Below the pieces are notes generated by a model. It did no database searches. It saw nothing but the letters and a program-made list of their open reading frames with translations, and was not told the origin of the DNA. Below are positions 60,634 to 63,054 of a stretch of 64,000 nt of DNA, one piece after another. The number at the start of each line of letters is the position of its first letter. The first letter of the stretch is position 1. A program made the position numbers and the translations under genes. This DNA is from an uncultured Myxococcia bacterium (GTDB taxonomy: Bacteria; Myxococcota_A; UBA9042; PHBI01). The stretch is from positions 7,126,484 through 7,190,483 of the forward strand of contig OW818691.1 of the NCBI GenBank assembly GCA_942493285.1, written 5' to 3'.

Positions 60634-63054
60634 TCAGTTGCCGTGCACGAAGTCCAGGTCGGCCATACGACCAGGGCCGTGACAGACCGAGCAGGTCTCG
60701 ACAGGCCGCTCCGCCTCCCACACCCCACGCTCCCACTCAACGGCGCCGCCGTTCTGCTCCATGTGGGCTGCCGACATCCAGCTGTCGTGGCACGAGTAGC
60801 AGGCCGCAGCCTCCGGGCTCACGATGAGGTCGGACGCGTTCGGCACCGACGTGCGGGCCGCCACGATCTGAGTGCGCGTCTCGTCGGGACCCGAGGTCGT
60901 GCGGATCGTCGTCGGCAACGAGTTCTGCGACAGCGGCAGCTCGTAGCTCCCACCGTCGTGGCAGGTCTCGCAGTTGTTGATGTTGCCGGGGAAGGTCACG
61001 CCGCTCCAGTTGTAATAGTACACGCCGCTCGTGCCGCGGTTGCGGACGAACTCGTAGTCGGTCGTCCGGAAGGCCGAGGAGTGGATGCCGTGGATCATGA
61101 ACTTGAAGTGGTTGCTCGACTCGGGGAAGAGCAGCGGGTCCGCGCCGTAATCGTCGGCGTCGCTGGCGGGCAGTGCAAGGTGGGCCGGGTCGGCGCCGCG
61201 CCCGCTCGTGCTGAGGTTCGGGTTGTGGCACATGACGCAGATCTGGATGTCCTGGACCCGCGACCCGCCGTGTAGCTCGAGGCGCTCATGGCAGTTGCTG
61301 CACTTGTCGTTGTTGACGACCGAGCGCCGCTTGTCGTCGCCAGCGACTTCCTTGATGGCCGACACCACGCTGCGCGCCACGTTGCCGCCCGCGGTCACCT
61401 GGGTGAACGAGCCCTGGAGCCCGATGAGGCGCATGTCCGCGCCGACGGGGAAGGCGGCCGTGAAGGTCGCGACGAAGGCGCCGGCGTTGGTCGCGCTCGG
61501 GTTCAGGGTGCCGGCACTCGCGTTGCGGAGGTTGGCCAGCGACACCGACAGCGGCTGCGCCTCGGCGCGACCGAGGTTGTTGTAGTCGATCGACTCGGTG
61601 ATCCCGCCCTGCGGCGATCCATACGCGAGCAGGAAGCTCGGCCCGCCCGTGATGTCGGTCGGCAGGGTCTTCACGTCCATCGCCACACCATCGCGCAGCA
61701 CCCGGAACTCGACCGTCGGTCTACGCTCGGCGTCGACCGTCACCGAGAGGAGCTCGAATGAGAGGTTCGACAGGCCCACGGGCACGTTCGGGTTGTGGGG
61801 CGTGGACACGTTGGTGAGGTGGAAGAGCTCGACCTTGTCGCTCGTGTGGCACGAGCCGCAGAGCTGATTGTTGGCGAAGGTCCCACCGGTGTGGGTCGGG
61901 CTCGCACCTGTGAACGTCGTCGTCGCATGGCACGACCCGCATGCTTCGGCGGTCGGCACCGTCAACCAGTTGCCACCATCGGGCGTCGCCGCGAGCGAGC
62001 CATCGTGGCACTTGCGGCAGTTGCGGATGTCCTGCGGGTAGGTCACCTCTGAGTAGTCGTGGCCGCCGAGGACGAACGGCTCGCCCGGCAGATTGTGGCC
62101 CATGTGGAGCTTGTGGACCATGGTCCCGAAGTTGGCCGATGCGCCGTTGGTCGGGTCGGTCGTGCCAGGGTTGTGGCAAACGACGCAGTAGTCGACCTCG
62201 ATGCGGCTTCCGTGTGCGGTCAAGTCCGCGTGGCATCCATTGCAGCTCTCCGTGGCGACGATCTTGCGGGTCGAGGTGACCGCCGAGCCGTTGGGCACGA
62301 AGTCGTGCGTCTCGTTGACTGGCGGTAGGCCAAGGCCGGAGATCTGCAGCGCGAGCCGATGCGTGAGGGTCGGCTGGTAGGGTATGGCCGCCCCGGAGAC
62401 CGGGTTGGTCGCCGCCGTGACGTCCGTCGCGAAGGTGTACGTGTAGGTGCCATCGCCGTGGTCGACGAGTGTCCCCGTGCGCTCGACGTTGGCCTGAACG
62501 ACCGTGTTGCCGCCACCAGTGGCCGAGCGGTTGATGTAGCTCACCCAGTACGACGCATCGCCGGTCGCGTTCTCCGGGATCAGCTTGGCGAGCCCGAATC
62601 GGACCTGCCCCTGGCTGCCGGCCTTCAGCCCGACGGCTCCGCGCCCGACCGCATCGGTCACCGTGAACTCGACGACCGTCGGCGTACCCACGGTCACCTC
62701 GTCGATGGTCCCGATGAGGGCACCCGGGATCTCGGCCAGGACGTTGAAGCTCCAGGCGGCCGACGGTCCGGGTTCGCCCTGCTCGCCTTGTTCACCCTGC
62801 TCGCCTGGCTCGCCTTGTTCGCCGGGCTCACCTTGCTCACCGGGCTCGCCCTGTTCACCGGGCTCGCCTTGTTCACCGGGCTCGCCTTGTTCGCCGGGTG
62901 TACCAGGCTCGCCCTGTTCCCCGGGGTCTCCCTTCTCACCCTGTTCGCCTTGCTCGCCTTGAGGGCCAGGCGAGTCCACGCAGCCGATCTGCCCGTAGAG
63001 AGCGACCCCGAGGGTCAGGCCGAGAGACGTTACGAAGCGGTGGCGGTAGGTCAT
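60634..63054 (-). CDS. Decaheme c-type cytochrome, OmcA/MtrC family, lipoprotein with collagen-like (Gly-X-Y)23 N-terminal linker
   Basis: ATG at 63054 gives [29 protein letters not shown] (lipobox IGC). A 69-aa G-E-Q/G-E-P repeat follows. Ten CxxCH motifs (CNGCH, CVVCH, CRKCH, CGSCH x2, CSNCH, CVMCH, CETCH, CYSCH, CSVCH), with spacing and intervening beta-rich segments as in OmcA/MtrC decahemes. The ORF-track 5' extension (to 63180) is rejected. Confidence 0.8.
62761..62967 (-). repeat. Tandem 9/18-bp coding repeat encoding collagen-like GEQGEP units
   Basis: Seen directly on the + strand as reiterated ctcgccttgttcaccgggctcgcc… units across about 200 bp. Confidence 0.7.

Follow-up and report, generated by a model that had tools for sequence, protein, structure and literature searches.

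A collagen-like Gly-X-Y stalk on an OmcA/MtrC-family decaheme cytochrome from a probable member of the Myxococcota

A central question of extracellular electron transfer is how outer-surface cytochromes span the nanometres that separate the outer membrane from minerals, electrodes or partner cells, and a gene at the right edge of the DNA analysed here raises that question in a structural form. The stretch, hereafter the window, comprises 64,000 nucleotides of contig OW818691.1, and the gene in question (60634..63054, reverse strand) encodes a decaheme cytochrome of the OmcA/MtrC family whose heme-bearing body is separated from a lipoprotein-type N-terminus by an uninterrupted run of 23 collagen-like Gly-X-Y triplets. 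What might such a stalk do for a cytochrome? The explanation that we consider best, and hold with moderate confidence, is that the protein is an outer-membrane decaheme lipoprotein of the OmcA/MtrC type mounted on an expanded, acidic Gly-X-Y spacer. A spacer of conserved length suggests a simple geometric answer to the question of reach: the cytochrome would be tethered at a set distance, and maybe trimerised. Beyond what an initial annotation of this DNA had proposed, the analysis adds the conservation of stalk length in the face of divergent X and Y residues, the repeated and independent expansion of such stalks, and the identity of the Shewanella tethers as miniature versions of the same element.

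The cytochrome and its Gly-X-Y stalk

Membership of the protein in the OmcA/MtrC family is secure. The NCBIfam model TIGR03507 (OmcA/MtrC) matches residues 120-804 with 504.2 bits against a cut-off of 209.3, from position 2 to position 672 of its 672, and Pfam recognises both the MtrC/MtrF II-IV region (PF22113, E = 7e-60) and the OmcA-like N-terminal domain (PF22112, OmcA-like_N). AlphaFold2 (AF2), run on a 57-sequence alignment, gives a monomer model whose predicted local distance difference test score (pLDDT) averages 87 and exceeds 90 over most of residues 100-806, and which runs in the order beta, helical/heme, beta, helical/heme. Compared with the PDB by Foldseek, this model finds Shewanella OmcA, MtrC, UndA or MtrF in all 16 of its best matches (E from 1e-33 to 3e-14; template-modelling (TM) scores of 0.53-0.72 on full-length chains), with OmcA at E = 1.4e-33 and TM of 0.57-0.65, and nothing in that database besides these Shewanella proteins is matched significantly. 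Ten CxxCH motifs are arranged five and five, and each is invariant or at least 90% conserved among the 57 homologues. Eleven His residues outside the motifs are conserved to the same degree, a number that would suffice for the ten distal ligands of bis-His ligation. The profile searches, the fold comparison and these counts bear out two proposals of the initial annotation, which had placed the protein in the OmcA/MtrC family and given it ten hemes. A database search with the protein returns 1107 homologues at E < 1e-10, the closest of which are 64-68% identical over their full length and labelled as metagenome-assembled genomes (MAGs) of Myxococcota or 'Deltaproteobacteria'. A nearer relative, 88% identical, emerged from a scan with the heme domain only; its metagenome contig (L068) begins within the gene, and the stalk portion is missing.

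The true start of the gene is most likely the ATG at 63054 rather than the upstream GTG at 63180 of the listed open reading frame (ORF; 60634..63180, reverse strand), because a Shine-Dalgarno-like GAGGA (63059..63063 on the same strand, read directly from the sequence) stands 4 nt upstream of the ATG and because Met1 is in register with the starts of homologues, 56 of which align with it in the 57-sequence alignment. Read from there, the complete coding sequence (60634..63054, reverse strand; 806 codons and a stop) is supported by TIGR03507, PF22113, its homologues and a coding-like GC content at third codon positions (GC3) of 0.86. All features of the gene given below lie on this strand. The product opens with a signal peptide and lipobox Cys (aa 1-25; 62980..63054), continues through the residues VDSP into the 23 triplets of the stalk (aa 30-98; 62761..62967) and ends in a 708-residue body that contains all ten CxxCH motifs. 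Cys25 is predicted to be lipidated, since it is invariant in the 57-sequence alignment and the orthologues have canonical lipoboxes (LAGC, MAGC or LGGC).

Four domains follow the stalk. The beta-rich, OmcA-like N-terminal Domain I (approximate limits aa 99-262; 62269..62760) is delimited by the PF22112 match at aa 126-254 and by AF2 strands at 102-252 with pLDDT > 90. Domain II (62268 down to 61810, that is 61810..62268, again with approximate limits) aligns with domain II of MtrF and MtrC and carries hemes 1-5 (CxxCH at aa 271, 290, 346, 372 and 399) together with conserved His 281, 314, 317, 388 and 412. A second beta-rich Domain III (about aa 416-572; 61339..61809; AF2 strands at 431-569) contains no Cys and leads into the pentaheme Domain IV (60637..61338; PF22113 at aa 577-805), which has hemes 6-10 (aa 585, 606, 695, 752 and 788) and conserved His 595, 655, 658, 764 and 804; the eleventh conserved His is H232. 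The protein has 21 Cys in total, and with 20 of them in heme motifs and the remaining one at Cys25, a structural disulfide is impossible.

The stalk itself consists of 11 GEQ, 7 GEP and five other triplets that occur once each, GPS among them, and with 19 Glu, one Asp and one Lys it bears a charge of -19. Its unbroken Gly-X-Y run scores 58.2 bits with the Pfam Collagen model PF01391, for which the gathering cut-off is 27.2. The NCBIfam models for Scl1, Scl2 and Lcl (NF038329, NF038330 and NF046116) return 50.5, 46.4 and 37.7 bits, below their cut-offs of 325, 400 and 500; the window protein is therefore no member of those adhesin families, and the likeness is one of Gly-X-Y composition only. 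In the DNA, Tandem Repeats Finder detects a period of 18 bp at 62768-62898 (7.3 copies, 84% matches), and no exact DNA repeat is longer than 23 nt. The 69-residue repeat between anchor and heme body described in the initial annotation is thus present as stated, as are the reiterated DNA units that encode it. Depending on whether each residue contributes the 0.286 nm of a triple helix or the approximately 0.31 nm of a polyproline II (PPII) conformation, the stalk is estimated to be about 20 nm long.

The most informative property of the stalk is its conservation. Six orthologues (P0001, P0002, P0003, P0005, P0007 and P0010), drawn from independent NCBI, ENA, JGI and Logan assemblies and with heme domains that are 51-73% identical, each carry an unbroken run of exactly 23 triplets at the corresponding position, and two others come close, with 21 in P0004 and 24 in P0008. 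When the seven 23-triplet proteins are aligned, which requires no gap, Gly identity is 100%, whereas identity at the X and Y positions is only 7-35% (52% in the closest pair), and that between the heme domains of these pairs is 51-86%. This combination of invariant Gly, divergent X and Y and a fixed number of triplets indicates that what selection has maintained is the Gly register and the count of triplets rather than the sequence. Such a pattern would be expected of chains packed in a triple helix or, at the least, of a structured rod with a defined length. The orthologue stalks are also acidic, with charges of -3 to -10, and those of P0001 and P0002 contain residues of both charges.

A reiterated repeat of this kind might be thought prone to length variation, as the initial annotation had suggested, and the data uphold that idea in part. 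Among clusters of proteins at least 90% identical, stalk length is the same in all members of eight out of ten, and the six orthologues just described have held to 23 triplets. The two variable clusters show that copy number does change where units are reiterated. In the first (P0024 and P0273-P0278, from Myxococcales MAGs), runs of 18, 25 or 32 triplets counted from the lipid Cys are joined to a constant remainder of 716 residues, the step being one 7-triplet (63-bp) unit, GDKGDKGDPGEDGDKGDPGED; these differences reflect either real copy-number polymorphism or short-read repeat collapse. In the second (P0029), lengths of 16, 17 and 18 triplets differ by single-triplet steps. The GEQ/GEP stalk of the window protein is the most homogenised of its clade and still has exactly 23 triplets, which argues that its length has been restored or held by selection.

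Codon usage sets the stalk apart from the rest of its gene. GC3 falls to 0.59 in the stalk as against 0.91 in the remainder, and two rare codons are strongly enriched there: GAA accounts for 8 of 19 Glu codons in the stalk versus 2 of 32 elsewhere in the gene (p = 0.003), and CAA for 7 of 12 Gln codons versus none of 16 (p = 0.0007). The dip recurs in orthologue stalks (0.68 versus 0.93, 0.68 versus 0.91, 0.77 versus 0.94 and 0.83 versus 0.93), and horizontal import as its sole cause was rejected, since these stalks have different sequences and dip likewise. The bias might serve to limit slippage, through synonymous scrambling, or to ease the demand on tRNAs.

The wider family points to the probable origin of the stalk. 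The mature chains of Shewanella MtrF, MtrC and OmcA open with 4-5 Gly-X-Y triplets (GSDGDDGSPGEPG, GSDGNDGNPGEPG and GSDGKDGEDGKPG; chain 3pmq_A starts from residue 26, 6r2q_C from 27 and 4lmh_A from 24). In HMMER alignments to the PDB chains of MtrF (3PMQ, GSDGDDGSPGEPGKPP), S. baltica MtrC (6R2Q chain C, GSDGNDGNPGEPGGEP) and OmcA (4LMH, GSDGKDGEDGKPGVVG), these triplets align with the last triplets of the window stalk. How common such tethers are was assessed by an index-free search with the heme domain alone, which avoids collagen-word bias and, with clustering at 50%, gave 2527 representatives, including 768 with E < 1e-30. The longest run that falls after the lipid Cys and before the first heme was counted as the tether in the best 150 representatives, of which 111 had an intact lipoprotein N-terminus. 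At least 3 triplets were present in 89 of these 111, at least 10 in 30 and at least 19 in 4. Among matches of the first search, the run starts 1-3 residues past the lipid Cys in 68 of 80 proteins. A C-x-G-x-D-G start is common across the family and might serve as a sorting or export signal besides being a tether.

Nearest-neighbour analysis of 196 heme domains shows that stalk lengths are clade-specific: 23 triplets in the window clade, 23-24 in that of P0008 and P0010, 19-20 in that of P0013-P0019 and P0041, and 15-24 in another. Long stalks across the family range from 15 to 48 triplets. At the upper end, the 850-residue P0009 has 47-48, where its nearest relatives P0008 and P0010 have roughly half that number (23-24), which suggests duplication of a whole stalk. 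Several long-stalk proteins, P0024, P0115, P0127, P0132 and P0213 among them, have nearest relatives with only 4-7 triplets, and expansion has therefore occurred repeatedly. Judged from these comparisons, the window stalk is not a one-off fusion but has grown out of an ancestral Gly-X-Y tether of the family.

Gly-X-Y runs also turned up beyond the family. A contig of a Gemmatimonadota MAG (L059, 3-3510) has two tandem ORFs, each with nine CxxCH motifs and 10 Gly-X-Y triplets near the N-terminus, and collagen-like tethers may thus exist on other multiheme cytochrome families. This contig and a Myxococcales multiheme cluster (L015) came from a scan with the full protein, in which the back-translated pattern EQGEQGEK also attracted unrelated collagen-like genes of Clostridia, Bacteroidales and others.

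Proposed role and competing explanations

We consider it probable that the protein is exported, lipidated on Cys25 and set on the outer face of the outer membrane, as its homology with Shewanella OmcA, MtrC and MtrF suggests, and that it acts there as a terminal module of extracellular electron transfer. Expansion of the usual family tether of 4-9 triplets to 23 would have produced an extended, strongly acidic spacer of about 20 nm, with the heme domain held, or able to reach, well off the membrane, perhaps beyond lipopolysaccharide or exopolysaccharide, to minerals, neighbouring cells or other cytochromes. The heme domain would receive its electrons from a conduit, a porin-cytochrome or one of another kind, whose genes lie elsewhere in the genome. 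The strict Gly register and the conserved triplet number further suggest that three chains may pack as a collagen triple helix, giving a three-headed, 30-heme unit. We infer both the surface location and the transfer of electrons to insoluble acceptors from homology.

Several observations weigh against parts of this proposal. The lipobox reads GQIGC, with a non-canonical Gln at -3; of the QIGC lipobox in the initial annotation, what is confirmed is a lipoprotein-type N-terminus with an invariant Cys. Surface exposure is argued from Shewanella proteins that are only 17-23% identical to the window protein, and Domain III lacks the disulfide that is tied to flavin binding in Shewanella. No trimerisation or nucleation domain is recognised by Pfam or NCBIfam, the stalk being flanked by a 4-residue linker and by Domain I. 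With 20 acidic residues to one basic, three chains would repel one another at neutral pH, at which (Glu-Hyp-Gly)10 peptides are not known to form homotrimers, and Shewanella MtrC has been described as a monomer. The AF2 monomer model leaves the stalk unstructured, with pLDDT mostly below 50 and rising only at the C-terminal end, and a monomer model is uninformative on a triple helix.

The genomic surroundings also count on this side. The initial annotation had noted the lack of MtrA and MtrB partners nearby, and this is true of the window, in which none of 40 neighbouring ORFs gives an MtrB/PioB-type match, there is no second multiheme ORF or other cytochrome, and the six reading frames outside the gene contain only 4 isolated CxxCH strings. 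It is equally true of six of seven orthologue loci (P0001, P0002, P0007, P0019, P0023 and P0061), where no multiheme or porin gene lies within 10 kb and no neighbour is conserved. As an argument it has little force, because the cytochrome gene lies at the right edge of the window, with only 946 bp visible upstream, and because mtrC is often unlinked in Desulfobacterota, in which mtrA and mtrB cluster together and mtrC is often found at another locus (PMC12133095).

The seventh locus, that of P0010, is the exception. It adjoins a convergent cluster of five multiheme ORFs (contig L002, 12578-22349) that carry from 6 to at least 17 CxxCH motifs each and include a CbcL-like protein, in which a multiheme domain is fused to a formate-dehydrogenase-gamma-type cytochrome b, and two cytochromes with the Geobacter CxxxxCH/CxxCH domain (GSu_C4xC__C2xCH). 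Association with a CbcL-like, quinol-oxidising cytochrome would link the stalked proteins to electron transfer, and we count this locus in favour of the proposed role. Unannotated proteins of 263 and 555 residues lie in between in the same cluster and could be porins.

One attractive extension of the proposal, which we regard as possible but tentative, is that the stalks of this clade are genuine triple helices. Each would then hold a lipid-anchored, 30-heme 'electron antenna' at a defined distance of about 20 nm, with the length tuned in each clade to the thickness of the surface layer and the Shewanella tether representing the evolutionary seed. Besides the unbroken Gly register and the conserved triplet number, the Pfam Collagen score speaks for this reading, and host-guest peptides show a high triple-helix propensity for Glu at X and for Gln or Pro at Y. 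In bacterial collagens, Scl2 for example, stability is attributed to hydration networks around charged and polar residues, and these proteins have a dedicated trimerisation domain (PMC8968730). If the triple-helix reading is true, the window protein and its orthologues would be, as far as we have found, the first collagen-stalked redox enzymes described in bacteria.

The main rival, to our minds a doubtful one, keeps the decaheme on the cell surface and makes of the stalk a monomeric, extended polyanionic leash, PPII-like or akin to a polyelectrolyte brush, that provides reach and flexibility and whose roughly 20 carboxylates might bind cations or positively charged Fe/Mn-oxide surfaces. A charge of -19 with a single Lys would suit such a leash, as would the acidity of the orthologue stalks and the failure of Pfam and NCBIfam to detect a trimerisation domain. 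Most family members have 3-9 triplets, a length judged too short for a stable triple helix alone, so the ancestral role would have been that of a tether. There is a precedent as well in the PT repeats of Geobacter PgcA, which have been proposed to bind Fe(III) oxide (PMC5732950). However, a plain leash has no need of Gly at every third position, and seven proteins that share only 7-35% of their X and Y residues keep Gly there through all 69 residues; for the exact conservation of triplet number, too, a structured rod accounts better than a random coil does. Should the stalk nevertheless be only a flexible acidic linker, it would amount to a modest architectural footnote. Natural variants with 5, 20, 23 and 48 triplets offer a testable handle on the matter.

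Alternatively, the protein might face the periplasm, attached to either the inner or the outer membrane, with the 20-nm stalk serving as a ruler or leash for shuttling electrons from inner-membrane quinol oxidases to outer-membrane conduits. The Gram-negative periplasm is of the order of 20 nm across, which the conserved stalk length would match, and such a placement would sit comfortably with a gene that has no porin-cytochrome partner in the window or at six of seven orthologue loci and, at the P0010 locus, neighbours a CbcL-like inner-membrane cytochrome. We nonetheless consider it improbable. All characterised members of the family are extracellular, so a periplasmic one would be without precedent; the tether has its homologue in the surface-exposed proteins of Shewanella, whose CGGSDG start recurs in P0008 and P0010; and position +2 is occupied by Val instead of a retention residue of the E. 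coli type, under sorting rules that are uncertain for Myxococcota. Finally, the idea that the repeat arose by error in assembly or annotation, or is inserted low-complexity sequence without a function, draws on the capacity of reiterated 18-bp units to mis-assemble, and the lengths of 18, 25 and 32 in the P0024 cluster might partly reflect such collapse, but with a longest exact repeat of 23 nt, an intact reading frame and Gly register, and six independently assembled orthologues that all have 23 triplets while differing in DNA and protein sequence, it is effectively refuted, and the worry that orthologues might lack the stalk goes with it.

Genomic neighbourhood

Upstream of the cytochrome gene lies a divergent, partial lipoprotein gene (63499 to beyond 64000, forward strand; MRLALACLFTLPLVWAC, followed by GSK...), and the cytochrome gene therefore heads its own transcription unit. 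The tether of this second lipoprotein is Pro/Ala-rich, not Gly-X-Y, which indicates that the Gly-X-Y tether is particular to the cytochrome and no general habit of the lipoproteins of this genome. A scan of 60300-63600 for promoter and terminator consensus sequences gave no match, the consensus being poorly suited to a probably myxobacterial genome of 66% GC. On the downstream side, 190 bp away, is a gene for a 483-residue polytopic membrane protein (58993-60444, reverse strand) that belongs to no Pfam or NCBIfam family. The L068 contig has, in the same position (2181-3635), a membrane protein 86% identical to this one beside its 88%-identical decaheme; at such relatedness, the pairing shows only close kinship, and the membrane protein was not found beside more distant orthologues. 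At the locus of P0002, the closest NCBI orthologue (contig L001, 12514-22421), the cytochrome gene is followed directly by a CBS-domain gene and a nuo-type (complex I) operon; no NuoE/F/G-type families are among the genes listed there.

The rest of the window contains genes for TPR proteins, peptidases, an FHA protein and a histidine kinase. A urease cluster (47525-51806, forward strand) comprises ureC (47525-49231), ureF, ureG (cobW/UreG family) and a HupE/UreJ nickel transporter, and is apparently unrelated to the cytochrome. An MbnP-family gene (33704-34618, reverse strand; E = 9e-38) is also present. MbnP is usually paired with the diheme peroxidase MbnH; no CxxCH-containing ORF was found near this gene, and the adjacent 248-residue ORF (32936-33682) has no family match. 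An 1811-residue protein with FG-GAP, HYR and Dictyostelium CTDC repeats (36250-41685, reverse strand) looks like a large secreted or surface protein of a type typical of Myxococcota, and FG-GAP/CARDB proteins flank orthologue P0010 too.

Comparison with known systems

The closest characterised counterparts are Shewanella OmcA (4LMH), MtrC (4LM8/6QYC/6R2Q), MtrF (3PMQ) and the undecaheme UndA (3UCP), with which the window protein shares the family TIGR03507. It resembles the Shewanella proteins in its beta/pentaheme/beta/pentaheme fold, its ten CxxCH motifs, its lipoprotein-type N-terminus and a Gly-X-Y tether right after the lipid Cys. It differs from them in sequence, at about 17-23% identity, in having 23 triplets rather than 4-5, in a gene that is not beside mtrAB, and in a host that is probably one of the Myxococcota rather than the Gammaproteobacteria. 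In Shewanella, a CX8C disulfide in domain III has been linked to redox-gated flavin binding, and the window protein is without it. The tethers of the Shewanella proteins, for their part, emerge from this comparison as overlooked miniature Gly-X-Y segments.

The MtrC lineage of Desulfobacterota (Desulfuromonas acetexigens and others) is likewise one of OmcA/MtrC decahemes in a 'delta' lineage, again with mtrC often away from mtrAB, and several of the homologues found here are Desulfobacterales proteins with short Gly-X-Y tethers. A study of this lineage admitted only complete MtrCAB sets, left out proteins that carry extra domains and described no stalk (ISME J 2025, PMC12133095); collagen-stalked forms would therefore have been filtered out there, and surveys that discard 'extra-domain' homologues in this way miss the collagen-stalked clade. 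Our search of the open-access literature found no description of a collagen-like stalk on an OmcA/MtrC decaheme. The initial annotation's impression that the arrangement is undescribed holds for the combination, and is to be qualified in that the stalk is recurrent and a short Gly-X-Y tether is family-wide.

A different solution to the problem of reach is offered by PgcA of Geobacter sulfurreducens, an extracellular lipoprotein multiheme cytochrome with long, repetitive Pro-containing segments that are proposed to help it reach or bind Fe(III) oxide (PMC5732950). PgcA is triheme, belongs to an unrelated cytochrome family and has its (Pro-Thr-x)n segments between hemes, in contrast to a Gly-X-Y segment between anchor and body; circular dichroism gave no sign of unusual secondary structure in it, a collagen-type triple helix included (PMC5732950). 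Bacterial collagen-like surface proteins are a further parallel, their collagen stalk holding a globular domain out from the cell (reviewed in PMC8968730). Streptococcus Scl1 and Scl2, Bacillus BclA, Legionella Lcl and Burkholderia Bucl8 also have uninterrupted Gly-X-Y runs that score as Pfam Collagen. Unlike the window protein, they have a recognised trimerisation domain and a mixture of acidic and basic residues, and they are adhesins or structural proteins, not redox enzymes. In animals, C1q, the collectins, ColQ-tailed acetylcholinesterase and scavenger receptor A all use a triple-helical rod to space their heads from an anchor. With no homology past Gly-X-Y composition the parallel is one of analogy only, and what the animal proteins and the stalked cytochromes would have in common is a design principle.

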